The position numbers and the translations under genes are program-made. This document shows, one piece after another, positions 24,668 to 56,277 of a stretch of DNA of 64,000 nucleotides. Source of the stretch: Vairimorpha necatrix. Taxonomy: Eukaryota. The stretch is taken from assembly GCA_036630325.1 (NCBI GenBank), contig CP142732.1, forward strand, positions 186,001 through 250,000. Reading direction: 5' to 3'. Position 1 is the first letter of the stretch. Each line of letters starts with the position of its first letter. Below the pieces are notes generated by a model. The model did no database searches. It saw nothing but the letters and a program-made list of their open reading frames with translations, and was not told the origin of the DNA.

Positions 24668-27076
24668 TGTGGGAAATAAAAAAATATAAATTCATGCAGG
24701 AAAGAGGGAATAGAAAATATTAATAAACGATTTGACGACATGGCGACAACGACCAACAACGTTAACTATTTCGCAGTGGTACTGAAGAGGATATAAATAT
24801 CTGGATCAGAGATATGATGATCTTGGGTGAAGTGGAAGAATGGGCTAAAAAAAATCTGGTGAAGGCTTTTGTATGAAAGATGAAAGAACGGATTTGTCTT
24901 GGGTTTCACAAGTTTTAGGAGGGAAAATTGGCAGTATTGGACTACAAGAACTGATTTTTATGAGAAAAAAAAGATTTGGATCTAATAAGAATAATGATAT
25001 TACTCTTGGCAGATTTTTGGAAAGACCGACGCCTGAGACCAAGGAGGAATATTAAAAGATGTTGTATGAAGCAACAATTATATTTGAAAGACACTTAAAA
25101 ACATTCCAGCTTTATGCCAGATGGTAATTAACAAATCGCCTATAGAAATTTAAGCGATATTAATCCAGGCAGCTTTAATGTGGGAACATGGGAAGATTTC
25201 ATTCAGAGAGCTGAAGTAATGGCATGGATACCATATCGAGATTAAATTCTATTAATGGTCGAAGTAAGACCAGATAGAACTACAAAAAAATGATGGAAAT
25301 TTTGGCAGAGGGCTATACAACAATAAAGATTTTGGCAGGGGCCCAAATAACAGCGGAAATTACGGCAGAGGACTAAACAACCGCAAATATTGCATGTTAC
25401 ATTGGGAAGGATCTCATTACTAAAAAAAATGTTTGCGACTCTCTGAAATGTTGGAAAATGAACGTAAAAGAAATTCGACAAAGAAGGTTTATATTAATGA
25501 GAAACAAATTAAAAAAGATAATTACGATTTGGACAATAAAGACAGTTTAAATTACTTGTTTAGAGTCATAGACCGAAGTAACTCATTTTTGCCACAAGGT
25601 ATTCTATATAATAATAAAAGGAAAATTCTTTTAGACACGTGAGCAGACGTCTCGATAATAGACCAAAAAGACATACCATCACATTTATATAAACAGATAT
25701 TAAATTACTCGGGAGTCGTTAAAGGCGCGGAAAGCCAACCCTTAAACATAATAGGCCAAATAAAAAACTGTGTTGTCAGGATAAATGGTAGAGATATTAC
25801 GTTTTCTCCTCTTATAATGAAAAATACAAAATTTATATTGAAGGGTCAGAGGTTATCAAAAAAAAACACAGAGTTAATTATCGAATTAATCAGAACATTT
25901 AATTTGGGACATGAAAAACAAGTCGTAACCGTTATAGAGGAGAATGAGACTCTTATTAAGGAAGAATATAAGGATTTATTTAAAACGGAGATAAGCGAAT
26001 TTAATCTTTGTACTGCAGGAAAACATAGCGTGCAAACAAATAGTAATAAGATAATCTGTCAGAGAAATGGCAGGATACCTATTGCACAAGAGGAAATAAT
26101 AGAAACCGAAATAAATAAATTGTTAAAGTTAGGAATAATAAGGGATAGTAAAAGCCCATGGTGTAGCAGGATAGTAATGGTCTCGAAGCCAGACAAAACT
26201 TGGAGGATGTGCATAGATTACAGAGGATTAAATGCAATCACTATTAAGGATTCATATATGTCTCCAAGGATCGACGAGATTTTTGACCGTGTTGCAGGGG
26301 CATCGATTTTCACTGTGTTAGACGCTACGTGTGGATTCCAACAATTGCTCTTGGAAGAAGAAGATAAAGAGAAGACAGCGTTCTCATTTAAAGGAAGGCT
26401 TTATGAATACAACAGAATGCCCTTCGGACTATGCAATGCTCCTGCCACCTTCCAGAGAGCCATGGACAATATTTTTAGAATGGAAAACAGAAAATTCGTA
26501 ATACCATACCTAGATGACATTATAATATACTCTAGAACGAAAGCGGAACACAACGTACAAGTAAAAATAGTATTAGAAAAAATAAGAGCTTCAAGATTAT
26601 CATTAAACTTAAAAAAATGTAAATTCTACAAGAATAAAATTAAAATTTTAAAAATATAATTGTGAATAGTTGCATTTAAGTAGACCCAGAAAAAACTAGT
26701 CTAATCGAACGTACCCAATTCCCACGTCTATTAAAGAGCTCAGAGGGTTCTTAGGAACAGTTAATCATTATAGAGACTTTGTAAAGTATATAGAATCGCT
26801 TACTGGTTCATTATATGACATACTTAGAGGGGAGAGACAAAACTCAAGTAAAAAAATCACACTTACGGAAGATCAATTGGCTGCTTTTAATAGAACTAAA
26901 TGCCAAATGGAAAAAAAATACTTTACGAACTCAACCGAACATTAAAAAGGATTTTATACTTATGACAGATGCCTCAAACTCAGGTATTGGAGCAGTGTTA
27001 CTACAGGAGAACGATCATGGAAAAGAGAAAATGATATCCGCGTTTAGTAAAAGATTAGATAATTGTCAAAAAAATT

Positions 27077-28241
27077 GGTTAAATTGCGATGTTACCCCCC
27101 CCCCCACCCCTAAAAAAATAAAAAAAAGGGGAAAAGGGGGAAAAAATAAAAAAAAAGGGGAAAATAAAAAAGGAATAAAATTATGCCCCCAAAATGAACA
27201 TAAAAAATTTTAGAAAATTAATATATAAAAAAGAGGAATTATTTTTATTTCTTCTTGAAAAAAATATATTAAAGGTACCAATGTGTAATAAGTGCATGAC
27301 ACCCATGACCAAAATTAGAAATAGTTTGGACAAATAAAGTTGTTACTTACGACGAAATGGGAGAAAATGCTCAAACAAAGGTAACATTTTACAAAGAAAG
27401 CATTTTTAAAAGTTCTAGATTAGATATCGAAGATCTTATAATTTTGCTGTGTGAATGGGTAAAGGGGGTAAGCAATGTTTCGGCTACTATCGAATTGGAT
27501 ATAGATAGTAGTACCGTATCTCGCTGGTTTACGCGTTTTAATAACGCTGTATTCTTATCCTATTTCAACTACCTTCAAAACAAAACCATAGGAGGTTTAA
27601 ATTGCGTAGTTGAAATAGACGAGACATTGCTTGTTAAAAGTAAAAACCATAACGGTAGAATCCTTCAATACCAAGTTTGGGCCCTTGGTGGTGTTATACG
27701 AGGAGACAGCAATTCTTTTTTTTTCGAAATTGTTGAAAAACGATCAAGAGCTACTCTTGTCGATTTAATAAAACGAAAAATCGCACCTAGGTCTACAATT
27801 ATTACTGATTGTTGGCGGGGTTATGAAGGGGTTTCGGAACTATGTCCGGATTATAACTATTTACATTTAACTGTAAATCATAGCCAAAATTTTGTAAATC
27901 CAACAACAGGCGCCCACACCCAAACAATTGAGGGAATGTGGTCTGTAATTAAAAGGGAATTGCGCAAAGAAGGAACAAGCCATGGTTCTTTAATGAATCT
28001 CATTCGAAAGCTTTATATAGCTCGTTTTAAGTTAATTTATAGAGAATCACTACTTGAAAGAATGTTATGCTTTTTTGAGATTGGTAATATATCATTTTTA
28101 AATTACGATTTAGCGCCCGAATTTGATTTTGAATTGATTAAATAATTTTTTGTTTCCCCTTTTTTTTTATTTTTTTATTTTTTCCCCTTTTCCCCAGTTT
28201 TTTATTTTTTTAGGGGTGGGGGGTAACATCGCAATTTAACC
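27077..28241 (+). mobile_element. Merlin transposon
   Basis: TIR ggttaaattgcgatgttacccc. TSD aaaaaatt. ORF 27357-28145 (VEIDET, ITDCW, HTQTIEGMW); N-terminus disrupted. Confidence 0.95.
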
Positions 28242-29304
28242 AAAAAATTATATAGAGACGGATAAAGAATTACTAGCCTTGGTTGAATGAATTAACCACC
28301 TTAGACATTACTTATTAGGAAGGAAATTTAAACTTAGAACGAACCACAAAGCTCTCATATACTTAATGAGCACAAAATACCCTTCTAGTAGGCTGCTCAA
28401 ATGATCCTTAAAACTCGCAGAATACAACTTTGAATTGGAACGTATAAAAGGGGGAAACAACATTGCCGATGGATTTAGTAGGTTTTATAAGATTGAAGAA
28501 AAAAATAACATTAACGCCGAAGAACTGGACAACAAAGATAAAGAGGACATAATAACAGAATATCATAGGATTTCTGGACATGGGTCAGTTAACACAATGA
28601 AGTTTATGATTTCCCGAAACTACAATTGGAAAGGAATGTATAAGGATATAGAAAATTTTTGCTCAAAATGTAGTATCTGTCTAAGAGCAGGAGGACTAAA
28701 GGTTAAAACAAAAAATAAGGTAATCTGCGCAGATAAGCCAAACGAAGTGTGGGAAATCGATTTAATGGGTAGAATGTATGAAATCTCGGGTTCAAAATAT
28801 GTTTTCGTAGCGATAGATCATTACACGAAATGGATAGAAACCAAAATAATCAAAAATAAAACAGGGCACGAAATATACAAAGCTATCTGTTGTCGAGTTA
28901 GTCTCGAGACAATACTTAGTGGGCTTACTCAAAGAAGATGAATTATTAATAAAGCGTTTATTACTCATTGTGCCCTTCTTGGGGCAATTTGCTTAAATAC
29001 TTTTTAGCAAATATTAATTAAACATATTTCCATTTTGGAGGGAAATAAAAAGAACACAGAAATTGTAGAAATAGGTGTAAGACACATATTTACATCATAA
29101 ATGTTTGTACACCAAAAAGTGTCAAACATTTAATTTATTCCAACGCATGTCAAAAGTCTTTGGGTTTAGGGATTCTAATGGTCAGCGTGGGTTTACCGCA
29201 TGACATACTCCCCCTCTTAGAAGTGATCCACTCTGCTGGATCAGATTCCTCAACTTTCATGATATCCTTTCGATTGACTGAAAATCTTTTTCCTAAAACG
29301 TCTT

Positions 29305-32121
29305 TGTCATGTCCTCAAAACCATGACATCTGTGTTTTACTGTGTTAAAACTTTAATCAGTAAAACACTGCCCCGAACGAATAGTCTAAGGCGGTGATCT
29401 CTAACGATCGGACATGAAACGTTATGTTTCATAAATAAATATAAATAGTCCAAAAAAGTTAGAAGACACCGAGCATGAAGAGTAACTTTAATAACAAATC
29501 AAATAAAAAGAAATATAATACAAATATTTTAGAATTGTATTTAAAAAACGGAGATATTACTCCGGTTCATGTCATTTTGAATTCAAAGACATTAAATGAA
29601 CAAAACGAAAAACGAAATAACGAAGATGACTATATACAAGTCAAAATCAAAGTTCCAGACTCGGACCTGGAATTTACGAAGAAATTAAAAATAATAAAAA
29701 ACATCGAAAAATTCGATTTCATTCCTTGGTTTAAGGAATTTGAAGAAATAGCCACACAGAACAAATGGAATGCTGAACAAGGCATCATGATACTACGAAA
29801 TTTAATTACTGATCGACGCCTAGAAGCGGATATTTTCATTACAGATGCAGCAACAACCAAAAGAAACTTAATTAAACATATTTTTGAGCAAGATGCTAAA
29901 GAAATGTTGCAAGAAGCCTTTAAGGTAAAACAAATAGATTTTCTTTTTATAGAAAACTATTATGAAAAGATTTACAACAAGATAAGTATCTATAGCGCTT
30001 ATTACGAAATAAGCAAATCGGAATTTAACAGACATTTAAGCGAATGCTTTTATCAAGGGTTAGGAAGAAACTCTACGTTTGAAATAATAAAACATAACTT
30101 AGGCGAGAACGTCTTAAATGCTTATAATCACCTAAAAAATATTGAGAAAATGATTCGAAAGAAAGCAGAAACTAAGAAAATAAACAAGGTGTCTAATGAC
30201 GAGCCAGTATATCAAGAAAGAGAAGGATCATACAGTAAAAAGTTTTCAAACAAGACGAATAACCCAAGATCTTCGTATATAAATAAATGGTGTTCTATAC
30301 ACAAAAACACTAGCCACGACACCAAAGACTGTTATTACAATAAAGACCGACAAAATGAAAATAAGAAGAAAGAAACAAGAGAAAATCTTAAGATAATCAA
30401 AGAACCAATAAAAGTAATAAATGGAATTGAATTAGAAGGTTCAATTGAAAAGAAAGAAACCAGATTTTTAATCGATACTACAGGTGCCACAAGAAATTTT
30501 ATTAGTAATAAAAAGATCAAAGAATTGAAATTATCACCCATTGAAGATGTGGAAATCCAAACAAAATTTGCCAATGAGCAAAAAGAAATAACTAACAAAA
30601 CAGTACTTGTTAGAATAACATTAAAGAATCTAATGAAAGAAAAATACGTAAGATTTTATATATTAAAAAACAACAGCGATGATGTAATATTAGGAAATGA
30701 ATTCCTAGTCGCAAATGAAGCAATAGTAAATTACAAAGAAGGAACAATTTATGTAGGAAGTGAGAGATTGAAATTTCTACATAACGACGAATGTTGCGAA
30801 TTAGACGCAATGTTATTTGAGAAAATGAATGTGTGCAAACAGGTAGATGAATGTGCATTAAAAACAGAAAATAAAAAGAACTTTAAAAAAGATGAAAAAG
30901 AAAGAATTTATATTGACAGAAAAATGACTAAAGAATTTATTAAATTTGTCCACGAATTGTCGGGACATTGCGGGCAAGTAATCATGTATTTAAACTTAAA
31001 AAGATGGTACAACATCATAAACATTAGAACAGTTATCCGCAAGATATGCAATCAGTGTATCGTATGTAAAGAAAACAAGGATTTTAAACAACAGAATCTA
31101 GAAAGAAATAAAATAGATAGCAGTGCACCATTTGAAATAATAAGCACAGATATTTTTGGTCTTTTTCTCCTGGAGGAGTTTGAGGGCGACTCTCTAAACC
31201 ATAAGGGTTATATCTTGACCATAACCGATGTGTTTTCGAGATTCACGAGAATTTGGTTTGGTGAGAAGTTTAGGAGTGAGGAAGTTATTATGTGTTTAAA
31301 CGAATGGAGTGATGATTTTGCGAAGCCTAAAGCGCTAATTTCGGACAATGGTCCGCAATATAAAAGTAAAAAAATGAAAGATTATACTAATAAAATACAA
31401 ATCGAACATCGGCTAATACCGATATATTACCCTCAAAGCAATGGAATTTCAGAACGTATAAATCAAACAATTGCAGAAGTGCTGAGAATGAATATAGGAA
31501 AGAATATAAAACACATTATTATGCAAATTGAACATCGGATAAATAATAATGTTAATACCACACTGGGAATTGCGCCTAGAGAAGCAATTTATAAGAATAG
31601 TTTTTATGACATTGAGAAAAGGGTTAATGTGCCATTTTTGCGAAACATACCTGCAGTTGAAGTGAACTATAAGCGACGTATCGCAGTAAATGACATTGTA
31701 TACTTAAAAAATTATAGCAATAATAAACTCGAGCGGAAATACTATGGGCCGTTTAAAGTTATGGAAATCGGTAAGAAAGGAAGTTGGGTTCGACTTAAAG
31801 ACATGCCCAACTGGGTTCATATTAAACAGTTGAAGCTGTAGGGGGGCAGACTGTCATGTCCTCAAAACCATGACATCTGTGTTTTACTGTGTTAAAACTT
31901 TAATCAGTAAAACACTGCCCCGAACGAATAGTCTAAGGCGGTGATCTCTAACGATCGGACATGAAACGTTATGTTTCATAAATAAATATAAATAGTCCAA
32001 AAAAGTTAGAAGACACCGAGCATGAAGAGTAACTTTAATAACAAATCAAATAAAAAGAAATATAATACAAATATTTTAGAATTGTATTTAAAAAACGGAG
32101 ATATTACTCCGGTTCATGTCA
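29305..32121 (+). mobile_element. RT-less LTR element (Gag-PR-IN), palindrome-PBS group
   Basis: 270-bp LTRs 29305-29574 and 31852-32121, identical by eye. TSD gtctt. PPT AGGGGGGCAGAC. One intact ORF. Confidence 0.96.
29475..31841 (+). CDS. 788-aa Gag / aspartic protease-like / integrase polyprotein lacking RT and RNase H
   Basis: WCSIHKNTSHDTKDC knuckle, LIDTTGA...ILG protease motifs, HHCC zinc finger, D-D35-E core (STD, SDNG, ISE), GPF motif. No YxDD or TDAS motif. Confidence 0.92.
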   Translation: MKSNFNNKSNKKKYNTNILELYLKNGDITPVHVILNSKTLNEQNEKRNNEDDYIQVKIKVPDSDLEFTKKLKIIKNIEKFDFIPWFKEFEEIATQNKWNAEQGIMILRNLITDRRLEADIFITDAATTKRNLIKHIFEQDAKEMLQEAFKVKQIDFLFIENYYEKIYNKISIYSAYYEISKSEFNRHLSECFYQGLGRNSTFEIIKHNLGENVLNAYNHLKNIEKMIRKKAETKKINKVSNDEPVYQEREGSYSKKFSNKTNNPRSSYINKWCSIHKNTSHDTKDCYYNKDRQNENKKKETRENLKIIKEPIKVINGIELEGSIEKKETRFLIDTTGATRNFISNKKIKELKLSPIEDVEIQTKFANEQKEITNKTVLVRITLKNLMKEKYVRFYILKNNSDDVILGNEFLVANEAIVNYKEGTIYVGSERLKFLHNDECCELDAMLFEKMNVCKQVDECALKTENKKNFKKDEKERIYIDRKMTKEFIKFVHELSGHCGQVIMYLNLKRWYNIINIRTVIRKICNQCIVCKENKDFKQQNLERNKIDSSAPFEIISTDIFGLFLLEEFEGDSLNHKGYILTITDVFSRFTRIWFGEKFRSEEVIMCLNEWSDDFAKPKALISDNGPQYKSKKMKDYTNKIQIEHRLIPIYYPQSNGISERINQTIAEVLRMNIGKNIKHIIMQIEHRINNNVNTTLGIAPREAIYKNSFYDIEKRVNVPFLRNIPAVEVNYKRRIAVNDIVYLKNYSNNKLERKYYGPFKVMEIGKKGSWVRLKDMPNWVHIKQLKL

Positions 32122-35100
32122 GTCTTCAATATCATAGTTGCCATTTCTTCCAACTTTAATAATTCTAAAAAAAACCATCGAACCTGTTATCTAGTTTATT
32201 TAAACGTTCATTTGGTTGTTTCCTTCTTCTTACATAATCGTTTAGCTTTAAGTCTTCAGGATCTTGTCCTGGTTTCACTTTGTCCATTTCCGTCAGTCTA
32301 ATTTCTCGTTCTAAGTTTAATAATGTATCTCGAAATTGATTTAGTCGCTCAATAATTAAGTTATTATCTTCTTCAACCTCTGCTAATAACTTATTCTCAT
32401 TAACAACCCGATTAGGTGCTCTACCAAATAATAATTCATATGGAGAATGTCCCGTTGATCTTCTTGGAGATATTCTATATGCGTATACGGCATATGGTAA
32501 GTACTCATCCCATTTTTTCCAACGCCCGTCCACTATCTTTGCTAGTTTTCCTATCAGAGTCTGATTTGTTCTCTCGGCTAATCCATTACATTTAGGATTG
32601 TAGCTCGAGGTAAACGATTTCTTGGTGCTCATCATGTTGCACACTCTTTTAACCAGTGAATTGGTAAATTCAGTTCCTTGGTCTGACAACAGTTCTTTTG
32701 GAGGGCCATATTGTAAAAATATTTTGTTTACAAGAAATTCAGCTATTACGTTCGCCGATTTTGTTTTTATCGCCTCAGCTTCAAACCATCTCGTTATATA
32801 ATCCGTTGCAATAATTATAAATTTATTGCCGTTTTCCGATTTTGGGAGAGGTCCAACGAGATCGATTCCAACTTTGTCCAGTGGATTAGTTAAAGGGAGT
32901 CTTATTTTCTGTAAATTTTTTACGCCTCGTGAGAATTTATTGCAAACAGAACATGATTTTAAAATATCTTTTACTTCATTATACATCCCTTTCCAGATTA
33001 AGTCCTTTCTCAATAAGGTATACGTGGCATCCACACCACCGTGTCCACAGTCATTATGACTTCTCATAATAGCTTCCAATTTAGCTTCCTCTGAAATTTT
33101 CTTGTTCTCTCTTCAGCGACATTCATCACTATCCTACTCATTGCGTCTGCGATCACGTTGATCTTTCCTGGTAGGTATTCGATCTTATAATTATATTCTT
33201 GAAGAGTGAGTATCCACCTCATTAACCTTCCTGATGTTTCTTTCAAATTTAACAGCCATTTCAAGGCCTGATTATCAGTTCTTATGGTAAATTCTCTAGT
33301 AAGGTATACTCGAAGCTTTTTAACCGCCCAAATTACTGCCAAACACTCTTTTTTGGTCACTGTGTAATTAATTTCTGCAGCTGATAGCTTCCGCGATATA
33401 CAGATTACAGGTATTAATTTATTTTCGTAGCCATCCAATTGAGATAATACGGCTCCTATTGCCAAGTTCGATGCATCAGTGTCGATATAAAACCTTTTAT
33501 CAAAGTTAGGTAAAAGTAATCCCGACGCCTTTCTTATTTCTGCTTTCATTATCTCAAAAGCTTCTGATGCTTCTTCGCTTAGAACAAACTTAGTTTTTTC
33601 CTTTCCTTTTAGTAATTCATATAGGGGTAGCATCTTTTGTGCATAATCCTTGATAAACCTATTGAAGAATGCCGAAAATCCGTTAAATGCCCGGATATCC
33701 TTCTTTGTCTGCGGTGACTTCCATTCCATAGTTTTCATTTTTTGTTGTAACGGTATTTCTACTTTACCGTTAATTACCTCATAACCTAGGAATTCGACTT
33801 TTCCTGCACAAACTTACATTTTTTTTTTATTTAACTTAAATCCTATTTTTCTGATAATTTCGAGAATCTGTCTCAGATGTATTAAGTGAGATTTGTGATC
33901 TTTTGAAAATACTAGAATATCATCCAAATAAACCATGACGCATTTATGCATATACTATTTAAAATATTTATTCATTATTCTTTGAAATGTAAAGGGAGCG
34001 TTAATAAGCCCAAACGGCATCTTTTTCCATTGAAAAACTCCTTCTCTAGTGTAAAATGCTGTTTTAAATCGGTCCTCCTTTTTAACTGTTACTTGATTGT
34101 AAGCTGCTTCTACATCCATTACACTGAAAATTCTTGCGCCTTGCAATTGATCCAAAGTTTCGTCGATACGCGGGATCGGATATTCGCATGGTATAGTAAT
34201 TGTATTTAGTCTTCTAAAGTCGATGCAAAATCTCAACCCACCATCCTTTTTTTTACTAGTACCACTGGTGACACATATGGGCTTTGGCTTTCTTCAATCA
34301 AACCTTGAGTTAGGAATTTCTGAACCTCTGCCCTAATTGTCTCATGTTCTTCCGGAGATCGTTTATACTTAGGACATATAGACATTTTGGAACCCTCCAT
34401 CAGCTCGATTGCATGTTCTATATCAATATTTATCTGTTTATTTTCATCCTGAAACACGCCTCCAAATTCAGATATCAAGTCTTTAAATTCTTGTTTGGTA
34501 TTGTCTTCGTCGCAATCAATGTCTTCTAATAATTCTTGAATATCAGTACAGGATTCTATTACTTCGTTTTCAAACTTAGCTTCCATTACAATATTTTTGT
34601 TTGTGATTTTATCTTTTTGCTTCTTCTGAGCAAGATATGAAAATAGATTTAGTCTTCGAATCTCCTCAATGCCTAACAACATCGATTCCTCCATATCTTC
34701 GACTACTAAGAAATTAAAACCTTTCGGCTGTTTTTCACCTTTCTTTTTTATGTTTAGGTAACATCTACCTACAATCTGACGCCCTCCCTTTAAGCCCTTA
34801 ATTTCTCCGGCTTCTTTCTGAATGGGAGCGTCGAGTTGTACCGCTACTGCTTTTTTAATTACCGACACTGTAGCTCCTGTGTCTAAAAGTGCATTCACAA
34901 TATTATCGCCATAGACCAACTCAATTCTTGGTCTATTATCTTCCTGATTCTTCACCTTAGCTGAAATACTAAGGACTTTCCTCATTCCGTCAGATATTGA
35001 TCGCCCTGTCGACTCTGCGACTACTTTGTCAACGGGTTGATCTCTCTTTGCAAATTCTTTTCTTGGAAATGTAGTAATGCTTTGCTTTCTTCCGAAATAA

Positions 35101-36335
35101 CGTAATTTTTTATTCATCGGCTTTTCGTTTTCTTCTAGGTAGGCTTCAAGTTCGTCCCAATTTTCACACGTGTTGAGATGAAATCTAAAATGTTCATCCT
35201 CTACTAACTCCACGATTCTTTCCTTTGCTCTTGTATATAAAAGTTCATTTTCTTCTCCGTAAATTCGTAAACTATAGTAATAAGAGATTACATCTGAGGT
35301 CTTGGGTCCTTCCTAGATACATCTCCAAAAGAACTCTGCGTTCTCTGTAACTTTTACTTCCTTGACGAATCTCTTTTTAAAGCCTTTAATAAATTTTTTA
35401 TAGGTTTCCAATTTCTTTTCGTGGGCTTTAAACCACAGGCTTGCTTTTCCTTTCAGCATCCTCGTAATCTTATGGTGCAGATAATTTGCAGCCCATTTTG
35501 TCTCAAATGCCAGAAATTGATCTAGAAAGGCCTTGGGATCCTCATTCTCATAACCATTGAATTCACTCAGTTTGTCAGTTAGTGCTAAATTCTTCAATCC
35601 TTCCATTACCAGGCCAAGGGAATCTTTTTCTGAAATCTCTCCGTTGTCGCCACTTGTTGTCGAGTTAGTCTCGAGACAATACTTAGTGGGCTTACTCAAA
35701 GAAGATGAATTATTAATAAAGCGTTTATTACTCATTGTGCCCTTCTTGGGGCAATTTGCTTAAATACTTTTTAGCAAATATTAATTAAACATATTTCCAT
35801 TTTGGAGGGAAATAAAAAGAACACAGAAATTGTAGAAATAGGTGTAAGACACATATTTACATCATAAATGTTTGTACACCAAAAAGTGTCAAACATTTAA
35901 TTTATTCCAAACGCATGTCAAAAGTCTTTGGGTTTAGGGATTCTAATGGTCAGCGTGGGTTTACCGCATGACACTATCAATTTACTAATAATAAAAAAAA
36001 CATGGAATTTTCGATAGAATTTTGACGGACAATGGGTTAGAGTTCAACAATAAACTAGTCCTATTACTTCAAAATAAATATAATATTAGTGGGAATTTGG
36101 GTCCCCATACCATCACCAAACAACAGGAGCAGTGGAACGAGAAAACCAGACTCTAAAAAACGTAATAAGAAGGTTGTCTTGCTTTGGACATTTAAACTGG
36201 AGTCTTTTTTAGGGGACGCTACACTAGTGTTAATATGTCATTCAACCGCACAATAGGAACTTCTCCATTCATAATGAAGCATGGACACCAACTTATGACA
36301 GAAATAAATAAGAGATTAAATATCAAGCCGAAATG

Positions 36336-55145: not shown

Positions 55146-56277
55146 GGTTAAATTGCGATGTTCCCCCCTGCACCTAAAAAAATAAAAAAAGGGGGAAAAA
55201 ATAAAAAAAAGACGAAACTGAAATTTATTCAATTAATTAAAATCAAATTCAGGGGCTAAATCGTAATTTGAAAACCATATATTTTGAACTTCAAAAAAGC
55301 ATAACATTCTTTCAAGTAGTGATTCTCTATAAATTAACTTAAAACAAGCTTTATAAAGTTTTCGAATGAGATTCATTAAAGAACCATGGCTTGTTCCTTC
55401 TTTGCGCAATTCCCTTTAAATTACAGACCACATTCCTCCAATTGTTAGGTGTGGGCGCCTGTTGTTGGATTTACAAAATTTTGGCTATGATTTACAGTTA
55501 AATGTAAATAGTTACAATCCGGACATAGTTCCGAAACCCCTTCATGCCCCCGCCAACATTCAGTAATAATTGTAGATCCAGGTGCGATTTTCCGTTTTAT
55601 TAAATCGACAAGAGTAGTTCTTGATCGATTTTCAACAATTTCGAAAAAAATAAATTGCTGTCTCCTCGTACAACTCCATCAACAGCCCAATCTTGGTATT
55701 GGAGGATTCTACCGTTATGGTTTTTACTTTTAACAAGCAATGTCTCGTCTATTTCAACTACGCAATTTAAACCTCCTTTGGTTTTGTTTTGAAGGTAGTT
55801 GAAATAGTATAAGAATACAGCGTTATTAAAACGCGTAAATCTGCGATATACGGTACTACTATCTATATCCAATTCGATAGTAGCCAAAACATTGCTTACA
55901 CCTTTAACCCATTCACACAGCAAAATTAAAAGATCTTCGATATCTAATCTAGAACTTTTAAAAAATGCTTTCTTTGTAAATGTTACCTTTGTTTGGGCAT
56001 TTTCTCCCATTTCGTCGTAAGTAACAAGAATGTTTGTCCAAATTATTTCTAATTTTGGTCATGGGTGTCATGCACTTATTGCACATTGGTACCTTTAATA
56101 TATTTTTTTCAAGAAGAAATAAATATAATTCCTCTTTTTTGTATATTAATTTTCTAAAATTCTTTATGTTCATTTTAGGGGCATAATTTTATTCCTTTTT
56201 TATTTTACCCCTTTTTTTTATTTTTTCCCCTTTTTTATTTTTTTAGGGGTGGATGGGGGTAACATCGCAACTTAACC
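55146..56277 (-). mobile_element. Merlin transposon, second copy of the 27077-28241 family
   Basis: Same TIR and closely similar ORF fragments. TSD caagataa / caaggtaa. Confidence 0.93.

Follow-up and report, generated by a model that had tools for sequence, protein, structure and literature searches.

How does an LTR retrotransposon move when it encodes no reverse transcriptase (RT), and does it do so as one member of a family that travels in this form? The question is raised by an element at positions 29,305 to 32,121 of the window, by which we mean the whole 64,000-nt stretch of Vairimorpha necatrix DNA analysed here (GC ~31%, from an assembly of 15.0 Mb in 12 contigs). We found that the element very probably represents a mobile, non-autonomous Ty3/gypsy family of a nosematid-type microsporidian, that has lost RT and RNase H through in-frame deletions and depends on RT borrowed from other elements. 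The features of the element are as follows.

29300..29304, plus strand: left target-site duplication (TSD), GTCTT, matched by the empty site in a contig of run X2
29305..29574, plus strand: 5' LTR, 270 nt, with TGT...TCA ends, read from the sequence
from 29305, plus strand: short inverted repeat TGTCATG...CATGACA, the first 24 nt of the 5' LTR; related families have similar 5' hairpins
29475..31841, plus strand: single Gag-protease-integrase frame of 788 codons, starting within the 5' LTR (ATG at 29475, TAG at 31841)
29576..29587, plus strand: 12-nt palindrome TTTGAATTCAAA in the position of a primer-binding site, with no TGG start
30291..30332, plus strand: Cys/His knuckle-like motif Cx2Hx4Hx4C at the end of Gag, aligned with full-length relatives
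30435..30707, plus strand: aspartyl protease domain (Pfam), motif DTTG at 30474-30485
30825..30854, plus strand: deletion junction J2, MNVCK of the protease-RT linker fused in frame to QVDEC of the RNase H-integrase linker
30912..31838, plus strand: integrase with HHCC finger, D-D-E core and GPF motif (Pfam and motifs)
31839..31851, plus strand: polypurine tract TAGGGGGGCAGAC, adjoining the 3' LTR
31852..32121, plus strand: 3' LTR, 270 nt, the same as the 5' LTR (100% identical)
32122..32126, plus strand: right TSD, GTCTT, matching the left copy

Most of the architecture in the original prediction held. The LTRs, described as identical, are 100% identical over 270 nt; the perfect TSD is GTCTT on both sides; and a purine tract precedes the 3' LTR. 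The 788-aa frame is uninterrupted (792 codons from stop to stop) and is the longest of the 36 frames of at least 150 aa in the window, the next being 363. Protease was said to run in frame into the integrase zinc finger around 30800-30900, and we place the join at ~30839/30840, with the finger proper from ~30912. Pfam matches on the element's frame (P0001) were aspartyl protease (aa 325-415), Integrase_H2C2 (484-539) and rve (555-657). Neither Pfam nor alignment to full-length relatives revealed RT or RNase H in the element; compared with those relatives, ~470 codons of RT and RNase H are absent, the gap extending between the protease-RT and RNase H-integrase linkers. The integrase had no chromodomain match, and Gag, which had no Pfam match, was assigned from position and homology.

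These features place the element among known classes. The TG...CA LTR ends, a TSD within the 4-6 bp range and the polypurine tract are those of a Ty3/gypsy LTR retrotransposon, and RT-RNase H precedes integrase in the lineage, as seen in the parent L032 and the relatives L034 and L036. Autonomous elements encode RT and RNase H, which this one does not. TRIMs and LARDs have no coding capacity, whereas this element has a 788-codon frame. The named proteins most similar to it came from Nosema granulosis (47%, over part of the length) and Vairimorpha necatrix (52%, likewise over part).

The element is not intact in every respect, as had been supposed. Aspartic proteases carry the catalytic motif D-[ST]-G. 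Three extra bases at 30476-30478 give the window copy DTTG instead of DTG, and the same variant occurs in one sister copy. Because the insertion breaks the motif, the protease of the window copy is probably inactive.

The element was also predicted to be the innermost insertion of a three-level nest, and the flanking elements bear this out.

28888..35973, minus strand: middle element hosting the insertion, RT-bearing gypsy-type of another group with frame breaks; TGG-type primer site, TSD CTATC
25643..36253, plus strand: mapped part of the outer gypsy-type element; RT at 25643-26659, integrase at 28405-28887, resuming near 35995

The LTRs of the middle element lie at 28888-29205 and 35655-35973 (minus strand), and this element splits the integrase of the outer one. 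The outer element is also split by a Merlin-type DNA transposon at 27075-28243. A second Merlin-type transposon lies at 55146-56277; the two are 92% alike and have long low-complexity inverted ends.

We found that the window element belongs to a set of near-identical insertions, which we call family A. A search of the element's own genome, in which all 27 candidates were scored, gave seven RT-less insertions on five contigs with different flanks. Each (7/7) had its own perfect 5-bp TSD, and the seven TSDs all differed. The copies were 99.3-99.8% alike (6-20 substitutions pairwise), and LTR pairs differed by 0-2 bases. J2 was present whole in five insertions. A sixth, L007, had the left side of J2 and an extra deletion through the zinc finger, and the seventh, L006, had a longer junction, J1. 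Among 70 loci, the protease side of J2 was found in six insertions, each with a different TSD (L008 overlaps L007). Thus, several independent insertions share the same defective structure, as expected of a non-autonomous family. The original prediction would have been undermined by a junction in one copy only with RT in all relatives, or by a junction that reads do not span; judged by copy number, neither is the case.

Several copies retain coding capacity. An unbroken frame of 791-792 codons was present in 3/7 copies, and two of the seven (L003 and L004) were fully intact, with an open frame, DTG and all integrase motifs. DTTG was found in the window copy and L002, and DTG in the other five; because DTTG is present at two TSDs, this variant was copied at least once. 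The frameshifts in L002, L005 and L006 each come from the loss of one base, in some cases within a short run, and assembly error may explain part of them. There were also solo LTRs of family A, two matching at 267-269 of 270 positions and several older ones at ~92-94% of aligned positions.

Contigs from public sequencing runs were consistent with recent movement. In run X2, one contig passes directly from 29299 to 32122, skipping 2822 nt with five letters fitting both sides. This is an empty site, and the window insertion is therefore polymorphic. Joints at the J1 position were found in contigs of runs X1 and X2, the L007 deletion was found in X2, and contigs of X1 and X2 lacked the three extra protease bases. 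Among the run contigs listed, which cover 18 of 55 loose ends and for X3 and X4 are scraps only, none was shown bridging J2 itself, and a metagenome scan with the J2 flank gave 0 matches.

Could the missing RT reflect a deletion after insertion, a segmental duplication or an assembly artefact? Single-copy RT deletions do exist in this genome (L040, L037), as do segmental duplicates with shared flanks (L054/L057, L049/L073, L015/L016). The young family A copies, in contrast, have different TSDs and flanks in 7/7 cases on five contigs, and contigs from public runs show both the empty site and variants of the junctions. The distinct TSDs refute post-insertion deletion for family A, and we consider this whole class of explanation very improbable. 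Our results support the conclusion that family A moved very recently in RT-less form, as had been predicted: the protease-side junction is common to six insertions and the seventh carries a different one, the two LTRs of a copy differ at 0-2 positions, and an empty site exists.

The RT-bearing state of the family is preserved in L032, which has RT (YIDD) and RNase H upstream and is ~90% identical to the window element over integrase. L032 is decayed, with stops, frameshifts and inserted DNA transposons. In its own genome, all three places scored for its RNase H region were itself and matches at 69% and 68%. Its RT stretch was at most 62% identical to the protein collection (6 matches of 95 candidates). 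As searched, with the best 40 of 102 candidates scored for the RT part of L032, the assembly contained no RT-bearing family A copy closer than ~90%, and the protein collection contained none.

The two junctions appear to have separate origins. J1 joins the protease linker to the RNase H end at a 7-nt microhomology, GAGAAAA, and is common to L006 and L031, a 93% copy. J2 retains MNVCK in the linker, whose homologue in L034, an RT-bearing sister, is IHVCK, and J1 does not have these residues. J2 is thus a deletion independent of J1, and a two-step history, in which J2 is a further 57-nt deletion of J1, is ruled out. We suggest that a parent with a single Gag-PR-RT-RH-IN frame (PR, protease; RH, RNase H; IN, integrase) would have lost RT and RNase H by in-frame deletion at least twice, leaving the cis signals (LTRs, primer-site palindrome and polypurine tract) and a Gag-PR-IN frame. 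The J1 copy L006 is only 6 substitutions from the J2 copy L003, which indicates either recombination between J1 and J2 forms or a very recent RT-bearing master. Either weakens the case for a long RT-free history of family A.

The second of these points to a different account of the family. Family A might consist of transient deletion derivatives whose nearly identical autonomous master is absent from the assembly, either because it resides in a different haplotype, nucleus or strain or because only a solo LTR of it is left. The open frame would then be a functionless by-product of in-frame deletion at microhomologies. We regard this as a serious alternative, with somewhat less than an even chance of being right. 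In its favor are two independent junctions among copies 99.5% alike and the two young solo LTRs. Against it are the absence of the closer RT-bearing copy from the assembly and protein collection as searched, and the sharing of J1 between the 93% copy L031 and the young L006. Further evidence on both sides comes from selection and from other families.

We found that selection on family A itself could not be distinguished from neutrality. For L003 versus L031, dN/dS over Gag-PR was 0.48 (CI 0.28-0.88), and over Gag alone 0.76. Neutral simulation with transition bias (kappa 2-4) gave medians of 0.60-0.70 and 2.5% bounds of 0.38-0.46; it covered the frames of A and B, for which the lowest 2.5% bounds were 0.34 and 0.39. 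The value of 0.48 is within the simulated neutral range and is not significant, and the simulation rules it out as proof of purifying selection. Replacement changes were common among young copies. This result is compatible with a functionless by-product of an absent master.

In contrast to family A, two other RT-less families, B and C, gave values below the neutral simulation. In family B, dN/dS was 0.28 (Gag 0.26; integrase 0.28, CI 0.14-0.52). In family C1 it was 0.17-0.28 (Gag 0.14-0.20; integrase 0.19-0.35), with dS up to 0.34. These values suggest that Gag and integrase are under purifying selection in B and C, on the assumption that each shared junction has a single origin. Usable microhomologies are few (four overlapping 7-mers in L060, all in frame), so copies with the same junction may reflect repeated deletion, which limits the reading of the B and C values and makes recurrent deletion from an absent master plausible. 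The original prediction held that the element supplies its own capsid and integrase, and proposed dN/dS between copies as a check. For family A this is a tentative idea, given the 0.48 and the disrupted protease motif in the window copy; the integrase part gains indirect support from selection in B and C.

Families B and C, and a fourth family, D, were found in the same genome. Family B has an 865-codon Gag-PR-IN frame and LTRs 99.7% alike, with one junction in four loci representing three insertions; no RT was found in any internal-bearing copy fetched (best 40 of 44 candidates). Family C has two junction types, and among the best 40 of 90 candidates none of the 7/7 internal-bearing copies contained RT. 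Many solo LTRs of family C were seen. The copies are as follows.

L066:2332-4918, L067:2818-5406, L068:3312-5892, L040:3962-9138: family C1, Gag fused to integrase, protease and RT both gone
L064:2718-5407, L065:2917-5599, L071:1505-5339: family C2, Gag-protease joined to the integrase core without the zinc finger
L054:2801-9836, L057:3590-6913: older family B insertion, LTRs 90-91% like family C LTRs, shared flanks

L054 and L057 have the same flanks and were counted once; judging from its LTRs, this older insertion is likely a B/C recombinant. A protein with protease and integrase and no RT by Pfam (P0009) was 98% identical to C2. Three outside proteins (P0055, P0056 and P0060; 3 of 13 scanned among 150 listed) also had protease and integrase and no RT by Pfam. 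They were 24-28% identical to this genome's elements and are known as proteins only.

Family D retains its parent. The open, RT-bearing L060 is 99% identical to two copies, L061 and L039, in which the same RT deletion occurs at different TSDs. One copy of family D has no RT but has RNase H, and another has a second deletion, the junctions lying at short microhomologies. L039 and L040 were rejected as stand-alone RT-less families: they have 92-99% sisters that carry RT or the skipped part, L039 belonging to family D and L040 being a single copy.

An integrase tree, built with FastTree from 33 segments (the best single one for each element) and rooted on L041, put the RT-less forms in separate clades (A, L037, L040 and B-C-D), beside RT-bearing sisters where such exist. 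Support was 0.998 for A with L032, and 1.0 each for L037 with L036, L040 with L062, and D with L060. This separation indicates that RT was lost several times. Different stages thus stand side by side in one genome, with the parent present in D, decayed in A and not found in B and C as searched.

These families bear on the absent master in both directions. Family D has exactly the layout that it calls for, with a 99% parent. On the other side, B and C likewise have no RT-bearing copy, their integrase appears to be under purifying selection, and A (young copies), B and C together have 17 RT-less insertions versus one decayed RT-bearing copy.

We propose tentatively that, within this microsporidian gypsy group, RT-less Gag-(protease)-integrase elements follow a stable, repeatedly evolved lifestyle, in which RT would be a common good across families at least 30% apart in DNA, Gag and integrase would be private, and A, B and C would have outlived their own parents. 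RT would be shareable because all the families have a generic palindromic priming site, and Gag and integrase would be private because the RNA and LTR ends that they have to recognise are those of their own element.

The priming site is unusual. TTTTGAATTCAAA directly follows the 5' LTR of family A and does not have the TGG start of a tRNA-primed element; TGG sites were found in the middle element of the nest and in L041. Self-priming of the Tf1 type was also ruled out, since the longest complement within the LTR is only 6 nt (compared with the primer-site feature as outlined in PMC5445492). A primer-site palindrome of 12-22 nt was present in 18/20 segments, the others being L034, in which it is mutated, and L041, with its TGG site. 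The palindrome centers showed matched changes (GAATTC, GAGCTC, GATATC). In palindrome-bearing families the first 15-30 nt of the LTR mostly form a short hairpin whose sequence differs between families. The carriers listed are as follows.

L036, L038-L040, L042-L050, L059, L060, L064, L066: primer-site palindrome just after the 5' LTR

A comparable site is known from fungal GalEa copia elements, in which a palindrome, the Conserved Hairpin Site, directly follows the 5' LTR in place of a tRNA primer site, according to the description in PMC5445492. GalEa resembles family A in this respect, but it belongs to the copia superfamily, its palindrome is 9-10 nt with a second complementary sequence, and the account given there concerns priming, not RT loss.

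RT for family A must come in trans, as had been predicted: integration with 5-bp TSDs and fresh LTR identity need reverse transcription, and the family has no RT of its own. We suggest that family A RNA would be packaged with the polyprotein of an RT-bearing element, reverse-transcribed by its RT and then integrated. Translation of its own Gag and integrase may favor its own RNA and LTR ends in cis, and its protease would be dispensable in cis. Candidate partners exist. Young RT-bearing families are numerous; their open frames have 1245-1294 codons, their LTRs are 98-100% alike, and they share with family A the core of the primer-site palindrome and similar purine tracts. The L049 family has 20-21 nt in common with A across the LTR end and palindrome, versus at most 13 in the other 19/20 segments. 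The LTR of the RT-bearing parent L032 already ended in GTCA, so the L049 family is a lead as helper and nothing firmer. L036 has the nearest open RT frame (67-68% in DNA), but it was rejected as helper, the 5' part of its Gag being frameshifted and its LTRs 97.6% alike. We give about an even chance to a helper from another palindrome-type family of this genome, somewhat less to a near-identical RT-bearing master absent from the assembly, and little to anything else.

The partnership might instead be one in which the RT-less copies donate Gag. All full-length relatives aligned have a single frame (1157-1294 codons), so Gag and Pol come from one frame and RT-less copies would add Gag, with integrase merely carried along. 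Such a role has been proposed for TR-GAG, Sabrina and Quinta, including wheat element pairs as outlined in PMC11302176 and PMC9744471, and it fits the apparent constraint on Gag in B and C (0.14-0.26). It does not account for integrase in B and C being constrained about as strongly as Gag, nor for C1, which dropped protease yet kept integrase in frame. Further, family A Gag is only ~25-49% identical to the Gag-PR regions of RT-bearing families, which makes co-assembly with them uncertain. We consider Gag donation unlikely as the explanation for these families.

Several known systems resemble family A in part. TR-GAG, the wheat pair RLG_Sabrina/RLG_WHAM ("semi-autonomous") and RLG_Quinta keep Gag or Gag-protease and are described as having no integrase (PMC9744471, PMC11302176, PMC5818461, PMC6696364). 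As portrayed there, these elements, like family A, lack RT but retain an open reading frame along with cis signals, and their mobilisation is attributed to a partner of little overall similarity. Unlike them, family A has a full integrase (HHCC, D-D-E, GPF) fused in frame, and where those partners share a tRNA primer site, family A has a palindrome.

The primary paper on the mouse IAP 1-delta-1 element is reportedly Saito et al. 2008. As summarized in PMC6466679 and PMC7411935, an in-frame internal deletion in this element yields a Gag-Pol fusion that helps in cis, full-length Gag and Pol are needed in trans, and the deleted form dominates new insertions. It differs from family A in that, by these summaries, it is an endogenous retrovirus with a near-identical autonomous parent present, and its deletion cuts into gag. 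By analogy, the fusion may be a functional precedent for a cis role of Gag and integrase in family A.

Microsporidian Ty3/gypsy elements include those named Nbr in Nosema bombycis. The microsporidia-specific Ty3/gypsy groups outlined in PMC4202319 are of the same superfamily and host group as family A; the terms "non-autonomous", "PBS" and "primer" are absent from the main text of that paper, which is not known to describe RT-less families. In sugar beet, 15 non-autonomous families keep remnants of RT, RH, INT or chromodomain, and for many of them no autonomous partner can be traced although they moved recently, according to the main description in PMC13570524. They are presented there as partly decayed POL remnants, whereas family A has an open Gag-PR-IN frame; the supplementary tables of that paper may hold such a case. 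Nothing relevant to Gag-PR-IN families was found in PMC10911583. In searches of open-access papers, we found no described open Gag-PR-IN family. Relative to the known semi-autonomous types, which as described in these sources keep Gag or Gag-protease only, the RT-less Gag-PR-IN family is new.

Should another haplotype contain a near-identical master, family A would be just an ordinary deletion derivative. Annotation and phylogeny based on RT overlook RT-less families entirely. The coding non-autonomous LTR elements portrayed in the sources above retain Gag or Gag-protease and rely on others for RT as well as integrase. If our reading is true, families that drop only RT and RNase H while retaining integrase in frame and spreading would reveal which retrotransposon functions are needed in cis and which ones unrelated families can share, and would bear on the long-standing question of how retrotransposon parasites find partners.
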